A stretch of DNA of 64,000 nucleotides, from assembly GCA_903827975.1 (NCBI GenBank), contig CAIKKG010000014.1, positions 52,833-116,832 on the forward strand. Reading direction: 5' to 3'. The translations under genes and the position numbers were made by a program. The DNA comes from an uncultured bacterium. GTDB lineage: Bacteria; Patescibacteriota; Minisyncoccia; UBA6257; GWB1-50-10. The notes beneath the pieces were generated by a model. It did no database searches and was not told the origin of the DNA. It worked only from the letters and a program-made list of their open reading frames with translations. Below are positions 10,059 to 63,437 of the stretch, piece after piece (position 1 is the stretch's first letter; each line of letters starts with the position of its first letter).

Positions 10059-11682
10059 ATCTTCCTCCAAATTTTGCTGGCCTAGAACCACGGCTTCTGA
10101 ATCTTGGCGTCTTTCTATCCTGAGATGCTCCTGGAGCGCCGGATGTTCTTGGTGCATAAGATGAGCCAGCCCTTGGTGCTCGTGATGAACCTGATGTTCT
10201 TTGCGCATATCCCGAGCTAGGTGTTCTTGGTGCGTATGATGAACCTGTTCGTGGCGCGTACGATGAGCCAGATGTTCTTGGTCCACTTGAAGTTCTTGGT
10301 GCGTATGATGAACCTGTTCGTGGCGCGTACGATGAGCCAGATGTTCTTGGTGCATAAGACGAACCTGAAGTTCTTGGTGCGTATGATGAACCAGCGTGAG
10401 TTGGTCTTGAAGAAGGTGTTCGTGAGTGAGATGAGTTTGCTCTATCCCTATTCATATGAGGGAACCTTCGTGAAGGCGCCTGACGTCTCTCTTCGCGCTC
10501 AGGTGGAATTCCTGTTTTTACTGAAGGTAATGCTTGAGGTAGCTCAGGCAGTTTTGAAACTGGGAGTGTTGATCTAATAAGTTTTTCAATCGAGCGGATA
10601 TCATCGCGCTGATTTGGGCGGGCAAATGAAATTGCATGACCACTAACACCTGCACGGCCAGTTCGTCCTATGCGGTGAACATAATCCTCTGCATTTTCAG
10701 GAAGGTCATAGTTTATAACAACCTCAATATTACTTACATCAATACCACGAGCTGCAATATCAGTTGCAACAAGAACACGGAACCTACCATTTTTGAACCC
10801 TTCTAATGCTTCACGTCTCTGACCAAGTGAGCGATTCGAGTGAATCTCCGCTGCTGCATGTCCTAAAAAGCGGACAGTTGCTGCAATTCTTTTTGCATTA
10901 TGTTTTGTTCTAGAAAATACGAGGACTGAACCGTTGTATTCCTGCAATAATTTTTCTAAAAGTCTAGCCTTATCCTCCTGTGAAACTATAAATAATTCCT
11001 GAGTTACATCTTTTGCGGTACTACCTGAACGCGCTATTTCAATGCGAACCGGCAATTTCATGTATGTCCTTGCAATTATTACGATTTCCTCAGGCATTGT
11101 TGCTGAGAAAAGCATTGTCTGTCTCTCCTCAGGAATTGAAGAGATAATTTGTTTTAATTGTGGAGCAAAACCCATATCAAGCATTCTGTCTGCTTCATCA
11201 AGCACAAGCATTGAAACCTTATCAAGGTTTATTGTTTTCTGGTCTACATGATCAATCAATCTTCCAGGTGTTCCTATTACAATATCAGGGCGTCGCGCTA
11301 ATGAGCGAAGTTGTCGTGACATTGGCTCACCTCCAATTATTACTGATGTTTTTACACCAAGTTGAAGACCAACTGTATTCAATGACTCTGCAACCTGAAT
11401 AGCAAGTTCACGTGTTGGTACTACAATAAGACCAAGTCCGTTAGCTTTTAAAATTCTCTGTATCATTGGGATACCAAATGCGAGTGTTTTTCCAGTTCCT
11501 GTTTGTGCTACACCCATAACATCCTTTCCTTCCATTGCAATCGGAATAGCCTGTTCTTGAATAGGCGTTGGTTTTGTAAAATTAAGCTTTGCAAGGATTC
11601 CTAGTATTCCTGGAGCAATTCCAAGTCCTTCAAATCCCCTTTCGTTATTTGTCATTCGGGCACTATCATAACACATTGACAA
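10057..11682 (-). CDS. DEAD-box ATP-dependent RNA helicase with repetitive S/Y/R/P-rich C-terminal tail
   Basis: Q-motif, AQTGTGKT, VLDEADRMLDMGF, SAT, HRIGRTGRAG motifs; C-terminus is tandem SGSSYAPRT repeats. Confidence 0.9.
   Translation of the reverse strand: MSMCYDSARMTNNERGFEGLGIAPGILGILAKLNFTKPTPIQEQAIPIAMEGKDVMGVAQTGTGKTLAFGIPMIQRILKANGLGLIVVPTRELAIQVAESLNTVGLQLGVKTSVIIGGEPMSRQLRSLARRPDIVIGTPGRLIDHVDQKTINLDKVSMLVLDEADRMLDMGFAPQLKQIISSIPEERQTMLFSATMPEEIVIIARTYMKLPVRIEIARSGSTAKDVTQELFIVSQEDKARLLEKLLQEYNGSVLVFSRTKHNAKRIAATVRFLGHAAAEIHSNRSLGQRREALEGFKNGRFRVLVATDIAARGIDVSNIEVVINYDLPENAEDYVHRIGRTGRAGVSGHAISFARPNQRDDIRSIEKLIRSTLPVSKLPELPQALPSVKTGIPPEREERRQAPSRRFPHMNRDRANSSHSRTPSSRPTHAGSSYAPRTSGSSYAPRTSGSSYAPRTGSSYAPRTSSGPRTSGSSYAPRTGSSYAPRTPSSGYAQRTSGSSRAPRAGSSYAPRTSGAPGASQDRKTPRFRSRGSRPAKFGGR
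10118..10400. repeat. Coding tandem repeat (27-nt unit, with a ~60-70-nt higher-order duplicate)
   Basis: gttcttggtgcgtatgatgaacctg... repeated >=8 times; creates spurious overlapping ORFs 10050..10355(-) and 10221..10577(+). Confidence 0.85.
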
Positions 11683-18304: not shown

Positions 18305-18315
18305 ATATTAGATAA

Positions 18316-18627
18316 TTATTTTTTGAAGCTACTTAGCATCATTTCTTTGTAAGAGGCGACCTCTGCCTTTATAATATCCTCGAATCTTGGTATTTCTTTT
18401 TGTAGAAATGCATACATTTCTTCTGGATTTGATGTGTCATATATCTTTTCCAACTCATTTGCCTGCGCCTCAGTAAGTAAATCCATTACCTTAAGCCAGA
18501 CACCCTTCATGATAATATCTGAGATTTGTGCAAGCATTGCTGTCCTCTGCTCAAGCGGAAGACTTTGTAGGCCTAGCTCAGCTACCAAATCTACACTGAT
18601 TAGCGAATTTATTTTGTTTATATCCAT
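18316..18627 (-). CDS. Hypothetical small alpha-helical protein (103 aa)
   Basis: Acidic helical protein immediately upstream of the 834-aa gene; no recognisable family. Confidence 0.5.
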   Translation of the reverse strand: MDINKINSLISVDLVAELGLQSLPLEQRTAMLAQISDIIMKGVWLKVMDLLTEAQANELEKIYDTSNPEEMYAFLQKEIPRFEDIIKAEVASYKEMMLSSFKK

Positions 18628-18656
18628 ATTGAAGTCATTATATCATTTGTAAATTT

Positions 18657-18680
18657 AAAAGCGCCAGAGCGGCGCTTTTA
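18657..18680. terminator. Bidirectional hairpin terminator
   Basis: aaaagcgccagagcggcgctttt. Confidence 0.7.
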
Positions 18681-18699
18681 GACTTAGAACATATATATG

Positions 18700-19092
18700 T
18701 TATTGCTGAATTCCGATTGAGCCGCCACCTACAAGGAGGATGGCAATATTTGCCGCCAATAGAATAAACTCAAATTCCCACCCTGTTTTATCTGTTGCAG
18801 AAAAAGGAGATCCCCATTTCGTAATTTTCATTGTTATTGCACCAACCATTACACAACTTAGAAGTAGCGCTCCTAATTGTGTATAGAACCCAAAGACAAG
18901 ATATAAGGATGAGACCATTTCAACCAAGCCAAGAACGATTATCATAAAGCTCATACTAGGTATACCCATCCCTATAGCTATATCTTTTGGATGCTTAAAT
19001 TTTGGAATCGCGTGAATGAAAAATACAATTCCAATTGCAAGGCGCAATGCGAATAACCCTATATTGTTGTACTGAAGTGTTTCTGTGAACAT
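18700..19092 (-). CDS. DoxX family membrane protein
   Basis: 130 aa, 4 TM, LRLAIGIVFFIHAIPKF DoxX N-terminal signature. Confidence 0.75.
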   Translation of the reverse strand: MFTETLQYNNIGLFALRLAIGIVFFIHAIPKFKHPKDIAIGMGIPSMSFMIIVLGLVEMVSSLYLVFGFYTQLGALLLSCVMVGAITMKITKWGSPFSATDKTGWEFEFILLAANIAILLVGGGSIGIQQ

Positions 19093-40183: not shown

Positions 40184-41935
40184 TTAGCTCTCAGAAACAA
40201 TACCAAGTCTTGTTGTCCCTACTTTTTCCACCATACCACTAAGTGGAATCACTACATGGAAAGCAGTTCCCTTGTTGAGCTCTGACTGAAACCATATCTC
40301 ACCTTTGGTATGTTCAATCACTGATTTAACCAAATATAGTCCCAATCCTGTACCATCTGTATCCATTTCTTTTACATTGTACGCGCGGAAGAGTTTTCCA
40401 AAAATTTTATCCTTTTGGTCTTCTGGAATACCATAACCATTATCTGATATGGTCAAAGCTAAGCTGACCTCTTTAATTATTTTATTCTCAAACTCATCAC
40501 CTTTTTGCTTCAGAAAAATCTCTATACCGATCTCACCCTTAGGTTGTGTGTATTTTATTGCGTTTGAAACAATATTTTGTATAACTATGCGCATAAGTTC
40601 TAAATCAACTACCACCGAACTAAGATTCTCTGAATATTTTTCGGAGATGTGCTGTTTCTTTTCTTGTATTTGTGGATATAGTCCTTGGATTATCTCTTTA
40701 GAGAGTCTAGGTATATCTACTGTTTCTGGCTTGATAGAAAATGTACCTAGTTCAATACGAGACATATTGAGCAATGCATTAATAAGAGTAATCATTCGCT
40801 GATTGTTTTTATATACCTCATCAAAATATTCTTTTTGTTTTTCATTTAACTCTCCAACCTCTCCCGAAATCAGCATCTCTAAAAACCACTTCATGCTTGT
40901 CGGTGGCGTTCGTAGCTGATGAGAAGCAAGTGAGATAAATTCAGTTTTTGCTCTGTCAATTTCTATTTCTTTTGTAATATCACGGAAAACATCAATCGCT
41001 CCTACTACTTTTCCATCAAGAATGATTGGTCTTGTATTTATTGCAACAGGAAAATGAGTTCCGTCTTTTCTAGCATAAAAAGTAGCAGTAGCAGTAGCAG
41101 TAGCAGTAGCAGTAGCAAGTGTAACCTGCGTTGGTCGTTTCTCTATTGGAATTCTAATTCCGTTTTCATCAAAGGATTGGACAACTTCAAACAAACTTTT
41201 TCCTCTTGCATCGCCGAATTGAAGCCCAAGCATTTCTTCAGCCGCTTTGTTGACCGTAATAATATTTCCACTTTCATCAACCGCAATAACTCCATCCCCA
41301 ATGGATGAGAGCATGGCCTCGTCCTTAGCACTTGCTTCCTCAATATTTTCTATGATTTTTTTAATCCAGGTGACATTAGTAATAATAATTATGAATAATA
41401 CAAAAATTAATAAACCAATACTAATATTTAATCTTATTTGTACAGCAGAGGTTTTTGAACGTATTAATGAACCTAGTATTGTGGCCTGATTTGCCATTTC
41501 AGATCTATGTTCCACCAACTGATTAACTAATTTAACTTCTATCTCATGTGTCTTTTGCGGGTCAGATAATACTGTTGGAAGATTCAAAAAAAGGTCACCA
41601 CCGATTTGTTTTATGGAATTATTATGTTCATCAATTAAACCAACCGATTGAAGTTCATCAGGGGCGACGAAATTTGTCTTCATACTCATAACTAGCACAT
41701 CAATATCTTTAGATGATGAAATCCATTTTTCTCGAGAGGAATCATCTGGATGTAATAGATATGCATCAAGAAGGTTTGCACGCTCGAAGATGTGGGTCCT
41801 AATATCACTAATAATTTCTAGTTTTAAAGTGTTGGCATTAGTTTGTATTACAGTAATAAATATAAATACACCTGCCAGAATCGAGACAATTAAGGAGATA
41901 GCGAAGACAATGCTGATTTTTGTTTTATTTTTCAT
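40184..41935 (-). CDS. Sensor histidine kinase (TM - extracytoplasmic ~150 aa - TM - PAS - HisKA - HATPase_c)
   Basis: 583 aa; H-box SHQLRTPPT; N, G1, G2 boxes; contains in-frame (TA)6 dipeptide run. Confidence 0.9.
   Translation of the reverse strand: MKNKTKISIVFAISLIVSILAGVFIFITVIQTNANTLKLEIISDIRTHIFERANLLDAYLLHPDDSSREKWISSSKDIDVLVMSMKTNFVAPDELQSVGLIDEHNNSIKQIGGDLFLNLPTVLSDPQKTHEIEVKLVNQLVEHRSEMANQATILGSLIRSKTSAVQIRLNISIGLLIFVLFIIIITNVTWIKKIIENIEEASAKDEAMLSSIGDGVIAVDESGNIITVNKAAEEMLGLQFGDARGKSLFEVVQSFDENGIRIPIEKRPTQVTLATATATATATATFYARKDGTHFPVAINTRPIILDGKVVGAIDVFRDITKEIEIDRAKTEFISLASHQLRTPPTSMKWFLEMLISGEVGELNEKQKEYFDEVYKNNQRMITLINALLNMSRIELGTFSIKPETVDIPRLSKEIIQGLYPQIQEKKQHISEKYSENLSSVVVDLELMRIVIQNIVSNAIKYTQPKGEIGIEIFLKQKGDEFENKIIKEVSLALTISDNGYGIPEDQKDKIFGKLFRAYNVKEMDTDGTGLGLYLVKSVIEHTKGEIWFQSELNKGTAFHVVIPLSGMVEKVGTTRLGIVSES
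41081..41116. repeat. Hexanucleotide microsatellite (AGTAGC)x6 inside the histidine-kinase CDS
   Basis: agtagcagtagcagtagcagtagcagtagcagtagc; encodes TATATATATATA in-frame. Confidence 0.9.
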
Positions 41936-41952
41936 AAGATTATGGTTTTAAT

Positions 41953-41961
41953 TATATCACT
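41953..41961 (-). promoter_or_regulatory. Extended -10 element TGaTATAAT (with TTGACA-like -35, short spacer) for the HK-RR operon
   Basis: Minus-strand tttgacatactagatagTGaTATAATtaaaaccataatctt ATG. Confidence 0.4.
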
Positions 41962-41982
41962 ATCTAGTATGTCAAATAAAAA

Positions 41983-42004
41983 AACCGCCTTTCGGCGGTG
42001 TTTT
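41983..42004. terminator. Hairpin terminator downstream of the tRNA pair
   Basis: accgcctttcggcggt flanked by A-run/T-run. Confidence 0.65.
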
Positions 42005-42007
42005 TTT

Positions 42008-42084
42008 TGGTGGACCTGACCGGATTCGAACCGGTGACCTCCTCATTGCAAATGAGGCGCTCTAACCAACTGAGCTACAGGCCC
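42008..42084 (-). tRNA. tRNA-Ala (anticodon TGC), CCA encoded
   Basis: GGGCCTGTAGCTCAGTTGGTTAGAGCGCCTCATTTGCAATGAGGAGGTCACCGGTTCGAATCCGGTCAGGTCCACCA with G3:U70 Ala identity pair. Confidence 0.9.
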
Positions 42085-42171
42085 AGAACCCATTTCTTGC
42101 CCCGCTTGCGCTTCGCTTCTTTGGGGTACTGAATTTTGTATTCTCTCATTGACTCGCGAACAAAATTCGTG

Positions 42172-42243
42172 TGGGCGTGGAAGGGATCGAACCTTCGACC
42201 TCTGTCTTATCAGGACAGCGTTCTACCACTGAACTACACGCCC
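42172..42243 (-). tRNA. tRNA-Ile (anticodon GAT)
   Basis: GGGCGTGTAGTTCAGTGGTAGAACGCTGTCCTGATAAGACAGAGGTCGAAGGTTCGATCCCTTCCACGCCCA cloverleaf. Confidence 0.9.
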
Positions 42244-43081: not shown

Positions 43082-43963
43082 ATGAGAGAATGCATTCTAA
43101 CATTACATTCAGATGATTCGGCATACCCAAGACTTCTTAAGGAGACCGTTGGGTTCCCAAAAACGCTTCATTATATAGGCTCATTACCCACGAGTGAGGA
43201 GATTTGCGTTTCAATAGTTGGTACCCGAAAAGCAACGCGAGAAGGATTGGCTATCGCACACGAGACGGCTAAGGAGATTGCTAAAAGAGGTTTTACAATT
43301 GTTAGTGGACTCGCACTTGGAATTGACGGGGCTGCACATGAGGGTGCCCTTGCTGGGAAAGGAAAGACTGTAGCAGTGCTTGCGAATGGGCTTGATTCTG
43401 TATACCCAAAACAACACGAAAATCTTGCTAAGCTCATAATAGAAAATGGCGGATGCATAATTTCAGAGTATTCAGATGGAACCCCCTCATATCCAAATCA
43501 GTTTCTTGAAAGAAATAGAATTGTGAGTGGGCTTTCAATAGCTACGATTGTGATAGAGGCGCCAGAACGATCTGGGTCACTTGCAACTGCGCGCAATGCG
43601 ATTGAGCAAGGACGTGAAGTATTTATTTTTCCAGGAAGTGTTAATCATGTTAATTATCGCGGATCACATAGACTTATCCGAGATGGCGCTCGATTGGTAA
43701 CAAATTTTTCAGATATTTTAGAAGACCTTGGGATGAGCGATAAAACACCAAGAGAGCAGAGCCTTACAAAAATTACAGAGCTTGAGGACGAGAATGAGAT
43801 TGAAATTGTACGAACACTTCTTGAATCGCCAGATTCTATTACAATTGACAAAATAATTGAACTCACTATACTTCCGCCACATATCGTCAGTGAAAAGCTA
43901 ACACTACTAATATTTGACGGTATTGTGTCAGAGCAGAATGGTTTGTTCTCAATTCGTTCATAA
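43082..43963 (+). CDS. dprA: DNA-processing protein DprA (Smf family)
   Basis: IVGTRKAT..G...A...A..G...VSGLALGIDGAAHEGAL...VLANGLD... Rossmann-like DprA core + C-terminal wHTH. Confidence 0.9.
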   Translation: MRECILTLHSDDSAYPRLLKETVGFPKTLHYIGSLPTSEEICVSIVGTRKATREGLAIAHETAKEIAKRGFTIVSGLALGIDGAAHEGALAGKGKTVAVLANGLDSVYPKQHENLAKLIIENGGCIISEYSDGTPSYPNQFLERNRIVSGLSIATIVIEAPERSGSLATARNAIEQGREVFIFPGSVNHVNYRGSHRLIRDGARLVTNFSDILEDLGMSDKTPREQSLTKITELEDENEIEIVRTLLESPDSITIDKIIELTILPPHIVSEKLTLLIFDGIVSEQNGLFSIRS

Positions 43964-43986: not shown

Positions 43987-46176
43987 ATGAAACTTGTTAT
44001 CGTAGAGAGCCCTGCAAAGGCAAAAACAATTGAAAAATACCTAAAGGGAGAATATAAGGTCGTCGCAAGCGTCGGCCATATTCGCGACCTACCAAAAAGT
44101 AATAAAAAGGCTATTGATATACCCGCTGGCTTTGTTCCTCATTACGAAATTTCAAAAGGAAAAGAGGAGGTTGTTCGTGAGATACAAAAACTTTCAAAAA
44201 AAGCAGAAGAGGTTCTTCTCGCAACTGACCCTGATAGAGAGGGTGAGGCAATAGCATGGCACATAAAGGAGGCGGTTGGATTAAAGAATCCTAAGCGTGT
44301 TGTTTTCCATGAAATAACAGAGCCCGCGGTTCAGGAGGCTATACGACACCCTCGCCACATAGATGAAAATCTAAGAAAGGCGCAGGAGGCTCGTCGCGTT
44401 CTTGACAGGCTTGTAGGTTATGACCTTTCAGGACTTATTTGGAAAAAGGTTCGATATGGTCTTTCTGCTGGGCGTGTTCAATCCCCCGCACTAAGAATAA
44501 TTATGGAAAAGGAGCGCGAGATTCGCGCTTTTGTTCCTGAACATTTTTGGACAATAAGCGGAAAATTTAAAACAAAAAGTAAGCATGAATTATTGCTTAT
44601 ATGCGAAAAAGAACCAAGAGACGAGTCTGAAACTAATTCAATCTTAGAACACGCAAAAAAAGGCTCTTGGTTTGTTATTTCCGTAAAACAAACTGAGGCT
44701 AAGCGATCTCCAAAACCACCATTTATTACATCCACACTTCAACAGACAGCCAGTTCACGACTTGGATTCTCCCCTTCACGCACAATGTCTATTGCTCAGA
44801 AACTATATGAGGCAGGACATATTACATATATGCGTACTGATAGTGTGAATCTTAGTGAGTTAGCACTAAAAGATATATATGCCGTTATCGAGAAGAAGTA
44901 TGGATCTGAATTTTTATCACCTAGAAAATATATTACTAAGAGTAAAAATGCTCAGGAGGCGCATGAGGCAATCCGCATAACAAAGCCAAGCGTTGTACAC
45001 GCTGGAAATAATGAGGAACAGAAACGCCTATATGATCTAATATGGCAACGAACAATTGCATCACAGATGACTGATGCAAAAGTTTTACGAACAAAAGTTA
45101 GCGCAAACATTGATGAGAATAATACTATTCCAAATTTTTCAATAAATGGAAATGTTGTTTTGTTTCCAGGATGGCTCTCTGCTGACGCAGGTGCAAAAGG
45201 AGAGGATGTTGAGTTACCACCAATTAAGGAGGGAGAGCCAGTATCATTATTATCTATTGAGGCGGAAGGAAAGGATACTGAGCCACCACCACGCTACACA
45301 GAGGCGGGCCTTGTCAAAGAGCTTGAGAAGCGAGATATCGGACGACCTAGTACATACGCGTCCATAATTAAGACGCTTCAGGACAGAGGATATGTAGAAA
45401 AAATTAATAAGGCACTTAATCCAACTGACACCGGAGAAGTGGTAAGTGATTTTTTGGAGAAGAACTTTGCAGAATACATCAGCGATTCATTTACTGCGGA
45501 AATGGAAAATAAGCTCGATGAGATTGCGGAAGGAAAAAGCGAATATAAAAAAATTCTTAAGAACTTCTATACCCCATTCGCTAAGGAGATTAAGGAGAAG
45601 GAGAAATTAGAAAAAGCAACGAATCTTGGTGAAGATGCTCGCTTCACGTGTCCAATTGATTCAACGCACGGACCGATGGTTATTAAACTTGGTCGCGCTG
45701 GTAAATTCCTGAGCTGTCGATTATTTGATGATAAAACAATAAATTGTCCTGGCGCCAGAAAACTTGATGGAACTCTTATGGAGGGTCCAAAGGAGACTGG
45801 AGAGTTGTGTCCCGAGTGTGGTGGTAAACTTCTAGAACGCGAAGGAAAGTTTGGAAAATTTATTGCTTGCAGTAATTGGAAGCGCGGGAAAAAAGGATGT
45901 CACTATATAAAACAAAGTCCTGAGGAAGAGGAAAAAAGGAAAACTGGGGTTAAATGTCCTGAGTGTGGCGGAGAAATAGTTGAACGACGTGGAAGATTTG
46001 GCGCATTCTTTAGTTGTGCTAATTATCCTAAGTGTAAATTCATAATTAAATCTCGACCCACTGGGAAAAAGTGTGAGCTTTGTGGAGCGCTAATGATGGA
46101 GGGTACAAAAACAATTCCTGAGCGATGCTCAAACAAAGCCTGCCCAAACCATAACCCACATAAGATTAAGAAATAG
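43987..46176 (+). CDS. topA: DNA topoisomerase I with C-terminal C4 zinc-ribbon repeats
   Basis: TOPRIM (LVIVESPAKAKTI..., ...ATDPDREGEAIAWH), active-site Tyr region, three CPxCG zinc ribbons. Confidence 0.95.
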   Translation: MKLVIVESPAKAKTIEKYLKGEYKVVASVGHIRDLPKSNKKAIDIPAGFVPHYEISKGKEEVVREIQKLSKKAEEVLLATDPDREGEAIAWHIKEAVGLKNPKRVVFHEITEPAVQEAIRHPRHIDENLRKAQEARRVLDRLVGYDLSGLIWKKVRYGLSAGRVQSPALRIIMEKEREIRAFVPEHFWTISGKFKTKSKHELLLICEKEPRDESETNSILEHAKKGSWFVISVKQTEAKRSPKPPFITSTLQQTASSRLGFSPSRTMSIAQKLYEAGHITYMRTDSVNLSELALKDIYAVIEKKYGSEFLSPRKYITKSKNAQEAHEAIRITKPSVVHAGNNEEQKRLYDLIWQRTIASQMTDAKVLRTKVSANIDENNTIPNFSINGNVVLFPGWLSADAGAKGEDVELPPIKEGEPVSLLSIEAEGKDTEPPPRYTEAGLVKELEKRDIGRPSTYASIIKTLQDRGYVEKINKALNPTDTGEVVSDFLEKNFAEYISDSFTAEMENKLDEIAEGKSEYKKILKNFYTPFAKEIKEKEKLEKATNLGEDARFTCPIDSTHGPMVIKLGRAGKFLSCRLFDDKTINCPGARKLDGTLMEGPKETGELCPECGGKLLEREGKFGKFIACSNWKRGKKGCHYIKQSPEEEEKRKTGVKCPECGGEIVERRGRFGAFFSCANYPKCKFIIKSRPTGKKCELCGALMMEGTKTIPERCSNKACPNHNPHKIKK

Positions 46177-46306
46177 TGGGTTAGTTTCTGTTCTCGCGTT
46201 GACAATGTAAAAATTCTATGACAATGTAGTTTTAGGTAATTAAAAAACCTCTTCTGTGCGTCGTGCATCATCAGAGAAAATAATACACTTAAACCAAGGA
46301 GGTAAT

Positions 46307-46873
46307 GTGGTTAAAAAGAAGCTGGCGCTCAGGCTCCTCAAGAAGAAAGTCGACTCACTTTTGGTGCGGGAGGAGAAGAAAGAAAAGGTAATGGAACAAC
46401 CCCCAATTGCACTCATGATTCCAGAAAAACTTCTGGTTTCTCAGTGCGACGGGGCGGAGACCTGCCTTCAGAGCGGACTCTTCTTCCCAATCAAAAATAA
46501 AGATGCGAAGGATGTCATGCATCTTGATTCCGCAGTAAACAAGCCGACAACAGCCGCAAAGGTCCGCGTCTACGAACTCAAACGTGATGCAACCTTCGGC
46601 CAGATGTTCAAGCACCTTAGGAATAATCCTCGCAAAATGTGTTTCACAGAGGCACAGATCTGCACCTTCATCCGTGAGAATAAACACGTTCTCACGAGCT
46701 GTGATGCAACATTCTTCCCGTTCGCCCTCAAAAGCGGAAAGGTGGCAGTTCTGCACGTCACCTACTACCCAGAGATTTCGGAGGACCAGTTCTGTATGTA
46801 CACATACCCTATTTGGAATCTCAGGCCATGGAATACGAAATTTAAATTCCATCTTGTTGTAATGTCTAAGTAA
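46307..46873 (+). CDS. Hypothetical protein, GC-rich islet, paralog of 49546..50067 (unknown Cys/His-containing family)
   Basis: GTG start 4 nt after AAGGAGG (ORF-track ATG 46256 lies upstream of the SD); ~50% GC; K-rich N-terminus; shares KRDATFGQMFKHL/TKHATTQEIMKFV, ..SC.., ..V.HV.YYP/..NVHSGYWTP blocks with protein at 49546. Confidence 0.55.
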   Translation: MVKKKLALRLLKKKVDSLLVREEKKEKVMEQPPIALMIPEKLLVSQCDGAETCLQSGLFFPIKNKDAKDVMHLDSAVNKPTTAAKVRVYELKRDATFGQMFKHLRNNPRKMCFTEAQICTFIRENKHVLTSCDATFFPFALKSGKVAVLHVTYYPEISEDQFCMYTYPIWNLRPWNTKFKFHLVVMSK

Positions 46874-46879
46874 AAAAAT

Positions 46880-46899
46880 CCCCCGCCAATTGGCGGGGG
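46880..46899. terminator. Bidirectional hairpin terminator
   Basis: cccccgccaattggcggggg flanked by A-run and T-run; near-identical to the hairpin at 49522. Confidence 0.75.
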
Positions 46900-46907: not shown

Positions 46908-47954
46908 TTAATATGCAGTCGTAAGACACACGTGATGAGGGTAGTCAAAACTCTCCTGTCCCTTAATCCATCTATATGAGTCGAGCTCGCAAATAGAAAT
47001 CGGGCGAAGTCCTTCAGTTCCTCTACACGCATTGATGATTTTTAGTTCTTCCATTTGTGCGAATACCGTAGCGGCCCTCAACTCAGTTTCCATTCTTGAG
47101 CCCGCTTTAATTATGGAACGGTCCATAATTTTTTGCATAAGAGAATCTGAGTATATAAAAATTCCATCAGAATGATACCCACGAGGAATCTCATAATCAG
47201 GAATTGGCCCAAGATATTCAATATCTTCAATTAGCCTTTTGAACTTCTGAGTGGCTTTCTCGTGATAGATTTTTACGAATAGTTGCGCTCGTTTCATGAA
47301 ATGAAATTTGCGTACATTACCTTCACCATCTACAAGTGTCGCGTTATCTGCTCCAAAAGTATTTGGGAATTTATTTAGTAGAATATCTACAACACCATCA
47401 CTTCCGTTCTTGCCAAATGCACGATATTGTCCTTCTTCCAAAATATTCATTGGGTCGCCATCAAATTTTTCACTTACAACGATGGCGGCCTCTTCAAGTA
47501 GATCCCTGCGCTCACCAATCATTGGTAAATCATTGAATCCCTTGAAAAACTTTTTTGTTCTTCCAAGCGAAAAAACAATATTCAAAATATCATTTGCATA
47601 TACTGGTGACTCATGGAATGTGCGGAAAAAGCACGCCCCCATAGCGGCGGAACCAAACTTAACATTGTTCCCTGATTTTGCGGAAAATGTAAGCTCATAC
47701 TCTGTTCGAAACTGCCCAGGATGAGCAAAACAGAAATTTACGCACGAGCGCCAAAACTCCTGAGTTACGAATGCGAGAAAATCATGCGCATAAATAGCAT
47801 CGTCATTCCACTTCGGAATAGAAAATTTACGAAGTGCAACTTCAGATGCGGATGCAAAAAGCATTGCCTCGTCTACATATACATGCTGAGGAACTAATGC
47901 TGACCAACTTTCAAGCGTTTCCTGCGTACGCCAATTCATGTGTACCTCCTTCAA
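46908..47954 (-). CDS. QNG1/DUF2419-like protein (putative queuosine 5'-phosphate N-glycosylase/hydrolase, queuosine salvage)
   Basis: Recalled-from-memory similarity to human C9orf64/QNG1 blocks: FL..VTQEFWRS (FLVDTLNFSFW), KFDGDPMNIL (KFGGSFLNCV), FMKRAQLFV (FYKRAQILV), ELDSYRW (LLDYYLW), ..DYPHH.. C-terminus. Confidence 0.5.
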   Translation of the reverse strand: MKEVHMNWRTQETLESWSALVPQHVYVDEAMLFASASEVALRKFSIPKWNDDAIYAHDFLAFVTQEFWRSCVNFCFAHPGQFRTEYELTFSAKSGNNVKFGSAAMGACFFRTFHESPVYANDILNIVFSLGRTKKFFKGFNDLPMIGERRDLLEEAAIVVSEKFDGDPMNILEEGQYRAFGKNGSDGVVDILLNKFPNTFGADNATLVDGEGNVRKFHFMKRAQLFVKIYHEKATQKFKRLIEDIEYLGPIPDYEIPRGYHSDGIFIYSDSLMQKIMDRSIIKAGSRMETELRAATVFAQMEELKIINACRGTEGLRPISICELDSYRWIKGQESFDYPHHVCLTTAY

Positions 47955-47990
47955 GGTTTTAAAGAAACTGCGTATAAAATACAGAAAAAA

Positions 47991-48015
47991 CGTGATTATG
48001 TCAATTACGTTTTTA
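47991..48015 (-). terminator. Hairpin terminator after map
   Basis: acgtgattatgtcaattacgt with T-run on minus strand. Confidence 0.5.
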
Positions 48016-48021: not shown

Positions 48022-48783
48022 TTATTTTGTTAAAACCTCGCATCCGCCTTCTGTTATTGCAATTGTATGTTCAAAATGAGCACTAAGACTTCTATCTTTT
48101 GTTTCATAGCTTCCATCACGAGATAAAACCGCATACTTCGATCCTACTGAGAACATTGGCTCGATTGCGAGCACAAGTCCAGGCACAAGTTTCATGCCCT
48201 CACCCCTATTCCCATAGTTAAAAACACTAGGATCCTCATGTAGTTCAAAGCCCACTCCATGCCCTGTAAGCCCCTGAATTACGCTAAAATTGGCCTTTTT
48301 AGCGGTGTTTTCGATAGCCCAGCCAATATCTCCCAAGTACCCACCAGGCACACATTCCTTGATTGATTTCTCTAGTGCGAGCTCTGTTGTCTTTATAAGC
48401 AGTTTTGCTTCGTCTGTGATTCTACCTATCCCGATTGTCATAGCTGCATCAGTTATTCTCCCCTTATAAGTTACACCGAGGTCAATCGAAAGAATATCAC
48501 CATTTTTTAAAACATACTTCCCTGGGATTCCGTGAACAATTGTTTCATTTACTGAGGCACAAAGAGCCGCTGGGTACGGCTTATTTGCGCCCTCTGGCGT
48601 GTAGCCCAAAAACGTGGGCTCACCACCAGCCTCACTTATAAGTTTTCGTGCAAGTTTATCAAGTGTTGAAAGTTGAATACCTTCTTTTGCAATTAATGCG
48701 ATTTCACTTAATGTGTTTGCTAAAATTTTCCCCGAGACCCGCATTAGTTTTATGTCGGCCTCAGTTTTTAAACGTATCTTCAT
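48022..48783 (-). CDS. map: Methionine aminopeptidase type I
   Basis: Pita-bread fold with metal ligands (D..D..H..E..E pattern: ..SIDLGV.., ..HG.G...HE..). Confidence 0.95.
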   Translation of the reverse strand: MKIRLKTEADIKLMRVSGKILANTLSEIALIAKEGIQLSTLDKLARKLISEAGGEPTFLGYTPEGANKPYPAALCASVNETIVHGIPGKYVLKNGDILSIDLGVTYKGRITDAAMTIGIGRITDEAKLLIKTTELALEKSIKECVPGGYLGDIGWAIENTAKKANFSVIQGLTGHGVGFELHEDPSVFNYGNRGEGMKLVPGLVLAIEPMFSVGSKYAVLSRDGSYETKDRSLSAHFEHTIAITEGGCEVLTK

Positions 48784-48787: not shown

Positions 48788-49468
48788 TTATCCGAGCTTC
48801 AATGCTTTAATGATTTTTTCTGAAACTTTATATGGCAACGATTCTCCGTCCAATTTTTTAATTGTGAATCCTTTCTTTTTCATTTCTGAAACAATTGGGT
48901 ATGTTCTCTCTCTATATTCCTTTAGGCGAACCTTAATCACCTCAGGATTATCTAATGAGCGCGTTCTCATAGTGCCGGCACATAGCGCACAATGTGGAAG
49001 TTTTGCACTTTCCAATTTAGGAAGTCCGCACTGTGAGCAGACTACTCGATGACTGTTTCTTTTTATCGAGGTTGAGTCTTCGACATTAAGTAAAACAACA
49101 GAAATATTTTCCTTGCCAAATGATTTAATAAGAGACTCGGTTAGGCCCTTCGTCTTGCCTCCGCCGAATGCCTCAAACATTGTTCTTGGGGAACCACTAA
49201 AAACTAAATTATATCCTGCTTTCGCGATTCTTTCAGACTCTTCTCTAGTAATTTTTAAAACCCACTCTGGTGAGCATAATATTCCTGAATCAAAATTTGC
49301 TTTTTCTCTTTTTAAAATTGGATCTGTTTTTGCCTTTGGCGAACGAAAAAGACTCTCAAGATATCGCCCCGTATCGAGATGTATAAAATTAAATTTTCTC
49401 GCTAACAAATCCGCCTGCGTACCCTTCCCAGAACCCGGAGGTCCATAAATAATTACAGCTTTTGACAT
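48788..49468 (-). CDS. adk: Adenylate kinase (long form with zinc-binding LID: CSQCG...CALCAG)
   Basis: GPPGSGKGTQ P-loop, LID domain with four Cys. Confidence 0.9.
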   Translation of the reverse strand: MSKAVIIYGPPGSGKGTQADLLARKFNFIHLDTGRYLESLFRSPKAKTDPILKREKANFDSGILCSPEWVLKITREESERIAKAGYNLVFSGSPRTMFEAFGGGKTKGLTESLIKSFGKENISVVLLNVEDSTSIKRNSHRVVCSQCGLPKLESAKLPHCALCAGTMRTRSLDNPEVIKVRLKEYRERTYPIVSEMKKKGFTIKKLDGESLPYKVSEKIIKALKLG

Positions 49469-49545: not shown

Positions 49546-50067
49546 TTAGAACGAGACCATGATTATCGTTCCGGGCGTCCAATACCCGGAGTGGACATTG
49601 AGGGCCCAGGTGCCATCAATGCACCTGCCGGCAGCCAAAATGCTCTCCTTCTTCTCATCTCCAGATTGGAGGGAGACTAGCGTCTTGCAACTCGGCATCA
49701 CATTACTGCAATACCGGATTGCGATTGCGAGCCCTTGTGGCCCGAGAAGCGTTGGCCGGCCAGGAAGGCCAGCCACGAACTTCATGATTTCCTGCGTTGT
49801 AGCATGTTTCGTTGCGTAGAAAAAGGCAAGGCGCCTTTTCCCGGGCAGAGGGTGGATATTCCCAGCCTCTAATGACTCGAAGGTGCGTTCGAAGAGGTGG
49901 ATACTGACCTTCCCACCACGACGAAGGTAATCGAAGTGGTTCACCACGGATGTGGGTACCCTCACCATGCTCTCGGTGAGGAAGGGAAACGGCTCCTGAC
50001 CCTGCATTAGGTCACGGATCCGCCCTTGGAATGCCCGATAGGGCTTCGTCGTATTCTGATTCAGCAT
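49546..50067 (-). CDS. Hypothetical protein, GC-rich islet (~55-57% GC), paralog of 46307..46873
   Basis: 173 aa; AAGGAG SD 5 nt upstream of ATG; inserted between secY and adk; no recognised domain. Confidence 0.55.
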   Translation of the reverse strand: MLNQNTTKPYRAFQGRIRDLMQGQEPFPFLTESMVRVPTSVVNHFDYLRRGGKVSIHLFERTFESLEAGNIHPLPGKRRLAFFYATKHATTQEIMKFVAGLPGRPTLLGPQGLAIAIRYCSNVMPSCKTLVSLQSGDEKKESILAAGRCIDGTWALNVHSGYWTPGTIIMVSF

Positions 50068-50186: not shown

Positions 50187-50438
50187 TTACCTACCAAGTA
50201 TTAAATAAAGCATTCCGAGTATTGCTAAGGCCCCAGTAATAAGAGGGTACTTTGCGAGTGTTTCCGCTAAGTACCCTCCCAACCACCTAAGGAACGAAGT
50301 GAGGAGTCCCCTCACCTTACTCCCAAGCAGACCAAGAACCTTCTTTGCAGAAGGCCCACCCCACAGATAAAATGGGGCAACCAGGATGGCCATTAGTATG
50401 GCCATCATTAGAACTATACTATTAAGCTCCTTCATCAT
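50187..50438 (-). CDS. Small hypothetical membrane protein (83 aa), part of the secY-adk insertion
   Basis: Two to three TM helices, elevated GC (~47%). Confidence 0.4.
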   Translation of the reverse strand: MMKELNSIVLMMAILMAILVAPFYLWGGPSAKKVLGLLGSKVRGLLTSFLRWLGGYLAETLAKYPLITGALAILGMLYLILGR

Positions 50439-50546: not shown

Positions 50547-51818
50547 TTAGAATATTCCTTCGTACTCTCGAATTGTGAGTTGTGACTCAATCTGCTTCAT
50601 AGATTCGAGTGCAACTGCAACAACGATTAGTAATGCTGTACCACCAACCTTCAACGACTGAATACCTGTAAAGAATTGTGTGATGTTTGGCAAGATTGCA
50701 ATCACACCGAGGAATAATGCTCCGAACAATGTGGTTCGATGCACTGTCTTTGCAATAACCTCTGCGGTTGCTTCACCAGGACGAATTCCAGGAATAAATC
50801 CACCACTCTGCTGAAGATTCTTTGAGATTTCCTTTGGATCAAAAGTGATAGCTGTGTAGAAATATGTGAATAGCACAACCAAGAAGAAATAAAGTGAACC
50901 ATAGATAAGCTGATTGTTGAATACCTTGGTCACAAAACTATTAAGCTTCAATGACAAATCAGGAGAGAAGATGGAGATTGATTGCGCTATAAACTGAGGG
51001 AATAGAAGAATTGAGATTGCGAAGATTATCGGAATAACTCCAGCCTGGTTAACCTTAAGTGGAAGGTACGAGGATGCTCCACCGTATACCTTTGAACCAC
51101 GAACCTGCTTTGCATATGAAACTGGAATCTTGCGCTCTCCCTCATTGACGAAAACAACGCCACCAATAACCACGAGACTAAGAATTGCAAAAATCAAATA
51201 TGTTGGAAGAACTCCTGGTGTGTAGTTTATGAACGCGGATGAGATTGCCTGAGGTAGTGCACTTACTATTCCTGCGAAAATGAGAAGTGAGATTCCGTTT
51301 CCAATCTTATATTCTGAAAGAATCTCTCCAATCCACATTAGCAATAGTGAACCAGCTGTAATAATTAAGACGTCTGTTATAAGTGAGAAAAAATTAAGTC
51401 TTGGAATAACACCCTGAGACATTAGAAGATTCAAAAATCCATAACCTTGTAATGCTGCAAGTGGGACCGTTATTAGGCGTGAGATTCTATTAAACTTCGC
51501 CTGTCCGGCTGCACCCTCTTCGTAGTATGCCTTCTTAAGATTCGGGAAAATAATGGTCAATAACTGCATAATGATTGTTGCAGTAATGTAAGGACCAACA
51601 CCAAGCATCATAATTGAGAGATGGGAAAGACCACCTCCTGAAAAAATGTTTAAAAATCCAAATAGCTGATTTGATTCGAAAAATGCCTGCAAGCGTGATG
51701 CGTCAATTCCAGGAATAGGAATAGATGCGAAAAGGCGGAAAACAAAAAGCCAAAAAAGCACCATAAGTACTTTTTTGCGAAGGTCCGGGGATTTAAATAC
51801 GAGTAGCAGTTTATTCAT
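50547..51818 (-). CDS. secY: Preprotein translocase subunit SecY
   Basis: 10-TM SecY with conserved ...GGVSHLSIMMLGVGPYITA... region. Confidence 0.95.
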   Translation of the reverse strand: MNKLLLVFKSPDLRKKVLMVLFWLFVFRLFASIPIPGIDASRLQAFFESNQLFGFLNIFSGGGLSHLSIMMLGVGPYITATIIMQLLTIIFPNLKKAYYEEGAAGQAKFNRISRLITVPLAALQGYGFLNLLMSQGVIPRLNFFSLITDVLIITAGSLLLMWIGEILSEYKIGNGISLLIFAGIVSALPQAISSAFINYTPGVLPTYLIFAILSLVVIGGVVFVNEGERKIPVSYAKQVRGSKVYGGASSYLPLKVNQAGVIPIIFAISILLFPQFIAQSISIFSPDLSLKLNSFVTKVFNNQLIYGSLYFFLVVLFTYFYTAITFDPKEISKNLQQSGGFIPGIRPGEATAEVIAKTVHRTTLFGALFLGVIAILPNITQFFTGIQSLKVGGTALLIVVAVALESMKQIESQLTIREYEGIF

Positions 51819-51833: not shown

Positions 51834-52256
51834 TTACTTAACTGTTCCGCCGGCTTTCTCTATTTTTGCTTTTGCTCCAGCAGAAATCTCTACGCCGTCA
51901 ATTGTTATAGGTTTTTTTATCTCTCCTCCGCTTAAAATCTTTACGCGAATGTGAGTTCCTTTCGTCAATCCCTTCTCGGCAATTATGCTCTTTGAAACGA
52001 TTCCGTCAGGAAATACTTTTGTGAGTTCACCAACATTAAATATTAGTGCAACCTCTCTCTTTGGCTTATTTTTGACACCGCGCAACTTTGGAATGCGCAT
52101 CAAAAGATCGCGCTCTGCAGGGCGAATTCTGTGACCAGCACGTGACTTCTGTCCTTTTTGTCCGTGTCCTGATGTCGTTCCACGCTTGCCACCACGGCCT
52201 ACGCGCTTCTGACTCTTCCTTATTGCATTTTTCGGTTTTAATTCGTTAAGCTGCAT
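51834..52256 (-). CDS. rplO: 50S ribosomal protein L15
   Basis: KRVGRGGKRGTTSGHGQKGQKSR... L15 N-terminus. Confidence 0.9.
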   Translation of the reverse strand: MQLNELKPKNAIRKSQKRVGRGGKRGTTSGHGQKGQKSRAGHRIRPAERDLLMRIPKLRGVKNKPKREVALIFNVGELTKVFPDGIVSKSIIAEKGLTKGTHIRVKILSGGEIKKPITIDGVEISAGAKAKIEKAGGTVK

Positions 52257-52268
52257 ATTATTTAAACT

Positions 52269-52778
52269 TTATTTAATCGGCTCTATCGACTTCAATGCTT
52301 CTATTCCTGCCTGTGCATTCGCAATTTTATTTTTTGTTGTTCCAAGGATTTTTGCAGAAACATCTTTTATTCCTGCGAGTTCCAAGACAACGCGAAGTGA
52401 GCCTCCCGCAATAAGACCGTGTCCCTTTTTAGCAGGCTTTATACGAACTCTTGCTGCATCAAACTTAGCCTCAACCTCATAAGGAACTGTGCGGCCGTCC
52501 TTAAGATTCACGCGAACCACACTTTTTTCTGCCTGACGAGTCGCCTTCTGTACTGCTGCTGAGAAATCTAATCCTTTTGCAGTACCGATGCCGATGCGTC
52601 CCTTCATATCACCCACCACGACTGCTGCGCGGAAGCTAAAGCGCTTTCCTCCTGCAACAACACGAGTTACGCGACGAACTTCGAGAACGCGCTCCTTAAA
52701 CTCAGAAACCCTCTTAGGCATCATACGCCTCGGACCTCTTGGCGAATTTTGATTATTTTTTGAATTAGGGTTGAACAT
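52269..52778 (-). CDS. rpsE: 30S ribosomal protein S5
   Basis: ...RVTRVVAGGKRFSFRAAVVVGDMKGRIGIGTAKG... S5 dsRBD + C-terminal domain. Confidence 0.9.
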   Translation of the reverse strand: MFNPNSKNNQNSPRGPRRMMPKRVSEFKERVLEVRRVTRVVAGGKRFSFRAAVVVGDMKGRIGIGTAKGLDFSAAVQKATRQAEKSVVRVNLKDGRTVPYEVEAKFDAARVRIKPAKKGHGLIAGGSLRVVLELAGIKDVSAKILGTTKNKIANAQAGIEALKSIEPIK

Positions 52779-59788: not shown

Positions 59789-60238
59789 TTATTTTCTAAT
59801 TTCAATTGATCCACCACGATTACCCGGAACAGCTCCGCGAACCATGATTATTTTTTCTTCCGGTTTCAATTCAGCAACCATAAGATTTTTTACTGTTACT
59901 CTTCGATTTCCAGTATGTCCTGCCATTTTCCTTCCTGGTAGCACGCGCTGAGGTGCTGTAGGACCGATTGAGCCAGGAGCACGAAGGCGGTCCTTCTGAC
60001 CATGTGACTTTGGACCTCCATGAAAACCATGACGTTTAACTACACCTTGGAATCCTTTTCCGCGGCTAGTTCCAGAAACGATAACTAACTCACCATCCTT
60101 CAATGAAGAAAAAAGTGCGTCAATATCGCCCTTTTCGCAAAGTAGCGGGGTTACCGGAAAGACCTTTCCGTCTTTCCAAATCTGAGACATTCTAAGTTTT
60201 TTTGCAATTACTTTTTCCATGTTAAATGAAAACAACAA
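59789..60238 (-). CDS. rplC: 50S ribosomal protein L3 (short form, ~145 aa)
   Basis: ..RGKGFQGVVKRHGFHGGPKSHGQKDRLRAPGSIG.. L3 signature; true start probably Met7. Confidence 0.85.
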   Translation of the reverse strand: MLFSFNMEKVIAKKLRMSQIWKDGKVFPVTPLLCEKGDIDALFSSLKDGELVIVSGTSRGKGFQGVVKRHGFHGGPKSHGQKDRLRAPGSIGPTAPQRVLPGRKMAGHTGNRRVTVKNLMVAELKPEEKIIMVRGAVPGNRGGSIEIRK

Positions 60239-62219: not shown

Positions 62220-62666
62220 TTACGGTTCAATTTTATAAACATCGAGCACGTCTTCGGTGTTTAGGCGTCCACAAAACTTCCAGTGAAATTTTTCTATGCG
62301 ACGCATATTTTCAAGAATCCAAATCTCTGCCGTACCACACTGCCACTTACCGTCCGAGCGTTGTACTCGGCAGTTGGCCTGAACGTGCAGATAATCATCA
62401 AATATGAAATCGAAGGAGAATGCCCTGGTAGCATTGATTTTATTGCCCTCTACTGCACTACCAAACCACTTAGCACTAACTTTTGCATTGCTGTGTGTCT
62501 TTCCTAGATACTGCAGAGACTTACAGACAAGATTTGTTGAAAAAGTAACTGCATCAGCAACAAGCTCAGAATTCTCGTACTCCATGAAACCCTCCTTATG
62601 GGATTTTGTGTTTGTTAATGAACAACTATCCAGAATTGGATGTTGTGAATATGACACATACTTCAA
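62220..62666 (-). CDS. Hypothetical protein (Cys-containing, 120-148 aa) inserted between fusA and tuf
   Basis: ORF starts with TTG; internal ATG (MEYENSELV..) plausible; no recognisable family. Confidence 0.45.
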   Translation of the reverse strand: MKYVSYSQHPILDSCSLTNTKSHKEGFMEYENSELVADAVTFSTNLVCKSLQYLGKTHSNAKVSAKWFGSAVEGNKINATRAFSFDFIFDDYLHVQANCRVQRSDGKWQCGTAEIWILENMRRIEKFHWKFCGRLNTEDVLDVYKIEP

Positions 62667-62723
62667 ATATAATCAAGTAAGCCATGCCTCGAACAGTATT
62701 TAGGCCTTATATTTCTTATACTA

Positions 62724-63437
62724 TTACTCCCTTACTATAAATGAGAGTGTTTTTAGAATTTCGGTGACAAATCCGCTTCCACCAAATGGGATGCTGCCAA
62801 GGCTTGCAGTAAATACAAGATCTTCGGTGTCAGAAAGTGAAATTATTGCATTAATATAATGTGTTGAACTTACAATACCCTCCTCACCCCTACATCGTTC
62901 GTGTTCCGCAATATCAAGTATTTTTCCACCTACCATAAACTCGGAATGCGCGAAAGACTTGCACGCTGATGCTTCCGTATACTGAATGAATGAACCTTTT
63001 TCGTATACTTGAAATGAAATTGCTTTTCCGTTTCCAGCATATGCAATATTTGCATCTCTTAATTTTACAATCACATTTACACCAACTGAACTACTGGATG
63101 TTGCGAAAGTTACTTTTGATAAAGCTGGATATTTAAAAGAGAAGCCATACTTTGTATTTTTATATGTGAGCCACTCGTTTCGCAATGGGGTGTTACCAAT
63201 TTTAGACGTGGTTGATGTTGCTATTACGGTTGTGGATGTTGGACATAGCGCAAAATCACAGGAGGGTCCTGTGCGTCCCACTGCTGTTCCATCCGGACAG
63301 ATTTTTGCCTCCATGGTACAACTAACCTCGTTATCAATTTTAGGTTTTTTTGAAACAGAAAAATAAACGCCAAAACCCACGGCAATAATTGCTATTAGCA
63401 CGCTAACCTGAATTAGAACTGAATTCTTTTTATCCAT
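62724..63437 (-). CDS. Hypothetical membrane-anchored/secreted protein with Cys-rich N-proximal motif
   Basis: N-terminal TM anchor; ..VSCTMEAKICPDGTAVGRTGPSCDFALCP..; beta-rich extracellular domain. Confidence 0.5.
   Translation of the reverse strand: MDKKNSVLIQVSVLIAIIAVGFGVYFSVSKKPKIDNEVSCTMEAKICPDGTAVGRTGPSCDFALCPTSTTVIATSTTSKIGNTPLRNEWLTYKNTKYGFSFKYPALSKVTFATSSSSVGVNVIVKLRDANIAYAGNGKAISFQVYEKGSFIQYTEASACKSFAHSEFMVGGKILDIAEHERCRGEEGIVSSTHYINAIISLSDTEDLVFTASLGSIPFGGSGFVTEILKTLSFIVRE

Follow-up and report, generated by a model that had tools for sequence, protein, structure and literature searches.

What does the gene that directly follows map in this bacterial DNA encode, and is it a recent import or a long-standing part of the genome? 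The gene, here called Q_salvage, lies on the minus strand of a 64-kb stretch of contig CAIKKG010000014.1, which was analyzed at its full length and is referred to as the window. A reading made from the letters alone (the sequence-only reading) had related its product to the eukaryotic queuosine-salvage enzyme QNG1 and to DUF2419, with a search against PF10343 as the check. It had also described the gene as displacing the infA-rpmJ-rpsM block and as a possible member of an acquired, GC-rich segment. We found that the protein belongs to the Qng1/QNG1 family and that its gene is native to the genome. Which nucleoside or nucleotide the enzyme would act on is weighed below against the residues of its active site, its relatives, and its genomic neighborhood.

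Family, active site, and expression signals

The PF10343 search was positive. This family (Q_salvage/DUF2419) was the sole Pfam match of the protein, with a score of 86.6 bits (cutoff, 25) and an E value of 2.8e-24 over model positions 16-278 of 285. It was also carried by all 12 homologs retrieved with a word index. In the Protein Data Bank (PDB), the single sequence matched Qng1 of Sphaerobacter thermophilus (StQng1; 7u07 and 7uk3) with an E value of ~2e-18 (1.8e-18 for 7u07) and human QNG1 (7ugk) with 8.9e-10. A 12-sequence profile gave E values of 2.6e-55 and 1.7e-42 for the two proteins, respectively. An AlphaFold2 model built from the 12-sequence alignment had a predicted local distance difference test score (pLDDT) of 91.7 and a predicted template modeling score (pTM) of 0.90. 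When this model was compared with the PDB by Foldseek, ranks 1 to 11 were all Qng1/QNG1 chains, with template modeling (TM) scores of 0.80-0.86 and E values of 6e-19 to 5e-16.

The residues that act in StQng1 were then located in the window protein, using the functional residues as named in PMC9881137, and their conservation was scored in the 148 nearest 50%-identity cluster representatives. The catalytic pair D231 and K199 of StQng1 corresponds to D248 and K216, which lie in the motifs DYxxP and KRAQL; the equivalents of both were invariant in alignment A1 and more than 95% conserved in the 148 representatives. In StQng1, D231 is the nucleophile, K199 orients the ribose, F75 and Y232 stack on the ribose, and D298 and W302 read the base (PMC9881137). 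The window protein has F71 and Y249 at the ribose-stacking positions, D320 and W324 at the base-reading positions, and L220 at the aliphatic position 203 (I203 in StQng1), and it keeps W48 and P46 of the side-chain pocket as W44 and P42. The conserved catalytic and binding positions were also 85-99% conserved across the representatives. The protein ends in ...CLTTAY directly before the stop codon, and this last residue, which matches Y323 of StQng1, was a Tyr in 138 of the 148 representatives. The carboxylate of the C-terminal Tyr completes the active site of StQng1 and closes the pocket around a mononucleotide, and tags at the C terminus inactivate that enzyme (PMC9881137). From the PF10343 and PDB matches, the predicted fold, and the mapped functional residues, membership of the Qng1/QNG1 (PF10343) family is therefore established, and the relatedness to QNG1/DUF2419 proposed by the sequence-only reading was borne out.

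The protein is already present in public databases. MCX6788583.1 (NTZ36_01725), from the Candidatus Jorgensenbacteria metagenome-assembled genome (MAG) GCA_026396755.1, is identical to it and named "hypothetical protein," and MEI6479343.1, from a second MAG and 99% identical, already bears the NCBI name "queuosine salvage family protein."

The minus-strand open reading frame (ORF) 46908-47954 is uninterrupted, as the sequence-only reading had stated, but the 348 aa that it had assigned to the product did not hold. The TTG at 47954-47952 overlaps the Shine-Dalgarno sequence, and the ATG at 47939, which lies 5 nt beyond it, is the true start; the product is therefore 343 aa long, a length that matches all public gene calls for the species. 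The gene and its signals are as follows.

46908..47939, minus strand: Q_salvage, coding sequence of the Qng1-family protein, 343 aa
47945..47951, minus strand: Shine-Dalgarno sequence AAGGAGG, perfect and 5 nt 5' of the ATG, read directly from the sequence
47976..48004, minus strand: promoter-like TTGACA-17-TATTTT within the 82-bp spacer between map and Q_salvage, a consensus match only
46880..46899, unstranded: bidirectional intrinsic terminator CCCCCGCC-AATT-GGCGGGGG, with a perfect 8-bp GC stem and T-runs on both strands

With its strong Shine-Dalgarno sequence and clean bidirectional terminator, which separates the convergent Q_salvage and hyp205 genes, the expression context of the gene is intact. 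Promoter-like sites were no commoner in the map/Q_salvage spacer than in shuffled sequence, so the TTGACA-17-TATTTT element is weak evidence of a promoter. At least 15 contigs of the species carry the frame intact and at full length. The ratio of nonsynonymous to synonymous polymorphism (pN/pS) against a 98%-identical strain was 0.13, a value that rests on only 6 differences.

Proposed substrate and family-level link to tRNA-guanine transglycosylase

Queuosine (Q) is the one tRNA modification that many organisms obtain only by salvage, and the work on DUF2419 already brought to light bacterial Qng1 homologs in salvage-dependent organisms. Jorgensenbacteria are members of the Parcubacteria, a group within the Patescibacteria, or candidate phyla radiation (CPR), whose members are extreme scavengers. 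The window agrees with a CPR host in its compact S10-spc operon, the absence of L30 between rpsE and rplO, its type-IV-pilus-like genes, and its low GC content. The host-dependent, salvage-based lifestyle put forward in the sequence-only reading fits such a host.

We favor, with moderate confidence, the reading that the protein acts as a Qng1-type glycosidase on scavenged queuosine, as nucleoside or nucleotide, and supplies queuine to a CPR-type tRNA-guanine transglycosylase (TGT) that lacks the Val of the substrate loop and would be encoded elsewhere in the genome. The N-glycosidase, of helix-hairpin-helix (HhH) fold, would enclose a single molecule of Q, Q 5'-monophosphate (Q-5'-MP), or Q-3'-MP. 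The conserved Asp/Lys pair would cleave the bond between base and ribose, the carboxylate of the C-terminal Tyr would close the site, and the product would be free queuine. In a CPR cell that lives by scavenging the products of nucleic-acid breakdown, the degradation of tRNA, its own or foreign, would supply the substrate, presumably after uptake. The TGT would then put queuine into the wobble position of tRNA-Asp, tRNA-Asn, tRNA-His, and tRNA-Tyr.

At the level of the family, the link of Q_salvage to tgt is clear. A scan of GTDB species representatives gave 143 loci that encode a relative, distributed over Chloroflexota, Acetothermia, CPR, DPANN, haloarchaea, and others. Eighty of these loci were fetched (fetched loci carry L numbers below), and tgt lay directly beside the Q_salvage gene in 10 of them. 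We distinguish two types of relative by three positions in StQng1 numbering: the canonical type A has Y93, K233, and Q306, and type B, the form of the window protein, has Ser or Ala at 93, a mostly nonbasic residue at 233, and in most members Arg or Lys at 306. Among the four CPR tgt loci that were opened, Q_salvage directly follows tgt in two (L094 and L095) and not in the other two. At 8001-10105 of L094, tgt and the canonical Q_salvage gene are followed by an HD-domain gene and a nitroreductase gene, and at 2869-4931 of L095, tgt is followed by a canonical Q_salvage gene. L097 (5001-6832) has the tgt-HD...nitroreductase order of L094 without Q_salvage. This comparison of L094 and L095 with L097 suggests that the canonical copy was gained or lost within the CPR.

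The TGTs themselves were examined by a homolog search seeded with a TGT of the Pacearchaeota/CPR type, from which the best 120 of at least 8000 candidates (P0187-P0306) were obtained. The Pacearchaeota TGT, which comes from a locus where it adjoins Q_salvage, shared 65-71% identity with a very large number of TGTs, the named ones being nearly all from CPR; this abundant and highly conserved clade suggests transfer between CPR and DPANN. No Jorgensenbacteria-named TGT was among the best 120 matches. All but one of these 120 had the substrate loop GG[DE][LF]G, mostly GGDLG. In CPR TGTs, and in the Q_salvage-adjacent TGTs of other phyla, the loop reads GG-[DS]LG, which is one residue shorter than GGLAVGE of E. 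coli and has no Val. In the E. coli enzyme, the Val of this loop (Val233) clashes with queuine, and queuine-salvaging TGTs have GG[LS][AS]G as opposed to GGLAVG (PMC11570991). The CPR loop resembles the queuine type in having no Val, yet it differs from both the published preQ1 and queuine motifs. The supplementary tables of the same paper contain no CPR entries (PMC11570991).

Several observations weigh against queuine release as the function of the window protein. Searches by tblastn with E. coli queries and with a TGT hidden Markov model detected no tgt, queA, or yhhQ in the 84 kb formed by the window and 10 kb at either end, and the gene lists of the two 10-kb flanks contained no Pfam family of the Q pathway. 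The protein had no match in NCBIfam. The pocket for the cyclopentenediol is lined in both StQng1 and human QNG1 by Y93-W94 and W/Y299, and the 5'-phosphate is bound by K/R233, R/K80, and Q306, the last of which is His in the human enzyme (PMC9881137). Of the cyclopentenediol pocket, the window protein has only W44 and P42 in common with StQng1, with Y93 replaced by S97, W94 by A98, W299 by S321, and H53 by I49. At the 5'-phosphate site, E250 takes the place of K233 and a Thr that of R80, where the alignment is less certain; Q328 corresponds to a retained Q306 and has K326 close by. The change at Y93 is branch-wide, as position 93 was Ser or Ala in 141 of the 148 representatives; position 233 was mostly Gln, Glu, or Ala, and position 306 was mostly Arg or Lys. 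In addition, every Q_salvage protein found to be encoded next to tgt, including those of CPR, was of the canonical type, unlike the window protein. The changes in the aromatic pocket make the substrate less certain but do not weaken the family assignment.

The distribution of the divergent type belongs with these points. In a neighbor-joining tree of the fetched homologs, the type-B CPR sequences and an archaeal group (including Undinarchaeales, Micrarchaeota, Pacearchaeota, Haloplanus, and Halorubrum) formed two clades, both of them apart from all other sequences, among them StQng1, human QNG1, and every tgt-adjacent copy. The divergent type was found in the cultured haloarchaea Haloplanus ruber (L014) and Halorubrum sp. 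(L023) and in the DPANN loci L013, L015, L021, and L022. Haloarchaeal tRNA carries archaeosine and is not known to carry queuosine, and archaea in general are not known to use it; the archaeal type-B members therefore probably do something other than feed the formation of queuosine at tRNA position 34. Their genomic neighbors encode members of the nucleoside 2-deoxyribosyltransferase family (Nuc_deoxyrib_tr), an adenosine-specific kinase (PF04008), cytidine/dCMP deaminases, and an HAD phosphatase, and in Haloplanus a TGT+DUF5591 protein is encoded 6 kb from the type-B gene. The "queuosine salvage" annotation of the CPR/archaeal branch, including its haloarchaeal and DPANN members, may be an over-transfer.

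We therefore considered the alternative that type B is a paralog with the same fold and chemistry that acts on another substrate (Q nucleoside, Q-3'-MP, or a preQ0, preQ1, or archaeosine nucleotide), the tgt-linked copy being the true Qng1 of CPR. This alternative is possible but doubtful. It would account for the branch-wide changes at the contacts with the 7-substituent and the 5'-phosphate (Y93 to S/A, K233 to E/Q/A, and Q306 to R/K), but the residues that face the guanine and the ribose are unchanged, W48 and P46 of the side-chain pocket are kept, and a basic residue is back at position 306 in most type-B proteins, so that phosphate binding may be rebuilt. In the tree, the CPR and archaeal clades lie apart from both characterized enzymes and from every copy adjacent to tgt, and canonical copies sit in the CPR tgt operons of L094 and L095; however, two of the four CPR tgt loci have no canonical copy, and type B could be the only Qng1 there. 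No genome was shown to hold both types, and the peptide patterns of the GTDB scan (DY[EG].P) favor type B and are not suited to asking whether genomes hold both. The type-B genes of haloarchaea and DPANN adjoin nucleoside and nucleotide salvage genes, which also favors another substrate. The window also encodes a nuclease of the SNase family (7544-8146), and SNase-type enzymes yield 3'-nucleotides, among which would be Q-3'-MP; this bears on which queuosine nucleotide is available. A further point in its favor is the transporter encoded beside Acidobacteriota qng1, which carries preQ0/preQ1 and not Q, a result called unexpected (PMC11130926).

Extended to the whole branch, this alternative would mean that CPR hold two ancient Q_salvage lineages: the canonical Qng1 of tgt operons and a topA-linked, often also relA-linked, type B that would be an undescribed 7-deazaguanine nucleoside or nucleotide glycosidase with another substrate and is also present in DPANN and cultured haloarchaea. 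We put this forward only tentatively. If true, type B would extend deazaguanine recycling to archaea without queuosine.

The nuclease gene is part of a pair at 6881-8146, in which a thymidylate-kinase/deoxynucleoside kinase (dNK)-like gene lies beside it. The nuclease has an N-terminal hydrophobic segment, a possible signal or anchor, and the pair fits scavenging of extracellular nucleic acids.

We also considered that the protein might be an HhH-superfamily DNA glycosylase that works on DNA together with topA/dprA and excises, for instance, a damaged base or one with a 7-deazaguanine modification. AGOG, OGG1, and EndoIII have a related fold (PMC9881137), and the place beside topA and dprA is conserved across CPR; however, the tail-to-tail layout means that the genes are not cotranscribed. 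The next-best Foldseek matches after Qng1/QNG1 were archaeal AGOG DNA glycosylases, with TM scores of only 0.38-0.50, E values of ~0.02, and 10-12% identity, compared with a TM score of 0.8 for Qng1. The protein had no match to Pfam HhH-GPD and, like nearly all of the representatives, has the C-terminal Tyr lid. On the fold scores and the Tyr lid, we set this reading aside as very unlikely.

Origin and genomic neighborhood of the gene

On the minus strand, the genes run in the order tuf, rpsJ ... rplO, secY, hyp83, hyp173, adk, map, and Q_salvage, followed by the convergent genes hyp205, topA, and dprA. The neighbors of Q_salvage are as follows.

50547-51818, minus strand: secY, with adk and map the end of the S10-spc operon
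48788-49468, minus strand: adk (Pfam ADK)
48022-48783, minus strand: map (Pfam Peptidase_M24), directly upstream of Q_salvage
46256-46873, plus strand: hyp205 ("islet gene B" of the sequence-only reading), 205 aa, lineage-specific, between Q_salvage and topA and outside the Q_salvage unit
43987-46176, plus strand: topA (Pfam match), convergent with Q_salvage
43082-43963, plus strand: dprA (Pfam match), in the partner block conserved across CPR

The position directly after map, which in turn follows adk and secY, was described correctly by the sequence-only reading, and so was the absence of the alpha-operon genes that normally follow. When the window and its two 10-kb flanks were searched by tblastn with E. 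coli L36, S13, S11, S4, RpoA, and L17, no homologs of rpmJ, rpsM, rpsK, rpsD, rpoA, or rplQ were detected; E. coli SecY from the same query set, which served as the control, was detected at 41% identity. An infA-like gene was absent from the ORF and gene lists of the window and flanks, infA not being among the tblastn queries. The tail-to-tail adjacency to the GC-rich gene hyp205 was also confirmed. The notion that Q_salvage displaced the infA-rpmJ-rpsM block was not sustained, since the gene order is common to relatives and represents an old rearrangement. Q_salvage now stands at the end of the spc-adk-map translation operon, as its last gene.

Composition and synteny both bear on the origin of the gene. 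Relative to 56 genes of the window, Q_salvage is typical: its GC content is 0.405 and its GC content at third codon positions (GC3) is 0.337, with z-scores of 0.1, 0.0, and -0.5 for GC, GC3, and codon usage, respectively. The neighboring genes hyp205 (GC3 of 0.553, z = 3.2), hyp173 (GC of 0.55 and GC3 of 0.66), and hyp83 are all outliers, with z-scores of 2 to 4.8. In L010, the order secY-adk-map-Q_salvage followed by convergent topA and dprA occurs without the GC-rich ORFs, and the stop codon of map and the ATG of Q_salvage are 1 nt apart (TAACATG). L008 likewise has adk-map-Q_salvage and the convergent topA and dprA without them. The Q_salvage proteins of these two loci are 40-43% identical to the window protein.

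The convergent pair of Q_salvage and topA was present in L007, L008, L010, L011, L016, L017, L019, and L043. Among these, the distant CPR loci L011 (Saccharibacteria), L016 and L043 (Nealsonbacteria), L019 (Paceibacterota), L007, and L017 encode proteins of 28-40% identity to the window protein, and in all six the divergent upstream neighbor is relA/spoT and not map. The dprA gene lies beyond topA in distant CPR where the sequence reaches. Because Q_salvage and topA are kept together in distant CPR with relA/spoT upstream, the conserved unit of CPR is Q_salvage/topA(/dprA), usually with relA/spoT upstream. In the Jorgensenbacteria-like lineage, an old rearrangement joined this unit to the end of the spc-adk-map genes, and the GC-rich ORFs were inserted later.

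These data were weighed against the view that Q_salvage is part of a recently acquired island that was inserted with the GC-rich ORFs into the ribosomal operon and replaced infA-rpmJ-rpsM. Such a view draws on the abutment of Q_salvage on the compositionally foreign hyp205 and on the alpha-operon genes missing downstream of map, but the z-scores of Q_salvage are near zero, the same gene order occurs without the GC-rich ORFs in L010 and L008, and the Q_salvage/topA pair is conserved as far as Saccharibacteria, Nealsonbacteria, and Paceibacterota. A recent island was thus rejected on composition and synteny and is highly improbable. Because its composition is typical and its synteny is shared by relatives, Q_salvage is neither a displacer nor a member of the islet, and its suggested membership of the acquired GC-rich segment was not upheld. 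The gene is native, vertically inherited, and long resident, and not a recent import. It is equally improbable that it is a decaying or nonfunctional relic, as the lack of partner genes seen nearby might suggest, since the frame is intact in the contigs of the species, the catalytic residues are all kept, the Shine-Dalgarno sequence is strong, and conservation is CPR-wide.

The three GC-rich genes, hyp173 (49546-50067), hyp83 (50187-50438), and hyp205, interrupt the otherwise conserved stretch from secY through adk, map, and Q_salvage to topA. None has a Pfam or NCBIfam match, and all are absent from L010 and L008; hyp205 is also absent from L007, L011, L016, and L043. Between two strains, hyp173 is 72% and hyp83 87% identical, compared with 99-100% for the flanking genes. 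The three look like hypervariable inserted genes.

Other features of the window were recorded in passing. In the ribosomal operons, rpmD (L30) is missing between rpsE and rplO (region 51834-52778), which are separated by only a 12-bp gap, and the uL3 ORF (59789-60238) is only 149 aa long and appears to be without an internal segment of typical L3. In the str operon, fusA and tuf are separated by two inserted hypothetical genes (62220-63437) for products of 148 and 237 aa, the longer of which carries a membrane anchor at its N terminus and has no Pfam match on record. A tRNA-Ile(GAT) and tRNA-Ala(TGC) pair stands alone at 42008-42243, with no rRNA gene found by Rfam in the window; these are the classic spacer tRNAs of rRNA operons. 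Beside tRNA-Ala, a sister strain (L001, GCA_037131435.1) carries a 2.8-kb insertion at 16079-18890, corresponding to ~41861-42017 of the window. The insertion contains genes for a DUF1330 protein, an NAD-dependent epimerase, and an RVT_1 reverse transcriptase, and ~156 bp of window sequence occurs twice, once at each end of it. The DEAD-box helicase encoded at 10057-11682 ends in a long C-terminal tail made of tandem GSSYAPRTS-like repeats, and a neighboring 834-aa protein (15800-18304) has short AAHFNAEHPSAA repeats.

Taken together, CPR genomes have long carried a Qng1-family gene and passed it on vertically. In this lineage it is attached to the end of the ribosomal-protein/adk/map operon, a position in keeping with a role in maintaining tRNA modification with nucleotides obtained from a host. 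The literature searched on queuosine or queuine in Patescibacteria, CPR, or Parcubacteria contained nothing relevant to CPR; one paper on a bacterial Q pathway in DPANN was found. Because the protein of the twin MAG is already annotated as queuosine salvage, the practical value of the assignment is modest. What is new is the true start of the gene, its status as an ancestral gene with the GC-rich ORFs as insertions, the conserved Q_salvage/topA(/relA) neighborhood in CPR, and a CPR/archaeal branch with a remodeled substrate site and without a characterized member.

Comparison with known systems

The closest known system is StQng1 (7u07, 7uk3, 7u1o, and 7u91; PMC9881137), which shares the Pfam family and fold with the window protein at 24-26% identity and whose host bacterium is likewise expected to depend on salvage. 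The two differ in the C-terminal motif, which is IFY in StQng1 and TTAY in the window protein, and in an insertion of ~8 residues before the G92 loop of the latter. Human QNG1/C9orf64 (7ugk and 8dl3) has the same family, fold (TM score of 0.80-0.82), and catalytic constellation, although its identity is only 19%. It keeps Tyr-Trp at positions 93/94 and Arg at 233, and StQng1 keeps Tyr-Trp and Lys, whereas the window protein has neither.

The canonical Q_salvage genes downstream of tgt in L094 (Nealsonbacteria-type), L095 (Parcubacteria DG_72-type), and L070 (Pacearchaeota) encode members of the same family in the same kind of host. Their products, of 305-318 aa, are ~25% identical to the window protein and keep every substrate residue of StQng1 (Y93, K233, Q306, and W299). 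These copies lie in a tgt operon, whereas the gene studied here lies beside topA and map with no tgt in the 84 kb.

QueK, the queuosine nucleoside hydrolase of Clostridioides difficile, has the same proposed role, the release of queuine for salvage, but belongs to an unrelated protein family (PMC11570991, PMC11130926); the window protein matches PF10343 only. Finally, the HhH DNA glycosylases AGOG, OGG1, and EndoIII share a distantly related two-lobe HhH fold and a catalytic Asp/Lys pair (PMC9881137). In comparison with them, the Qng1-type insertions and the C-terminal Tyr lid of the window protein point to a mononucleotide, not DNA, as its substrate.

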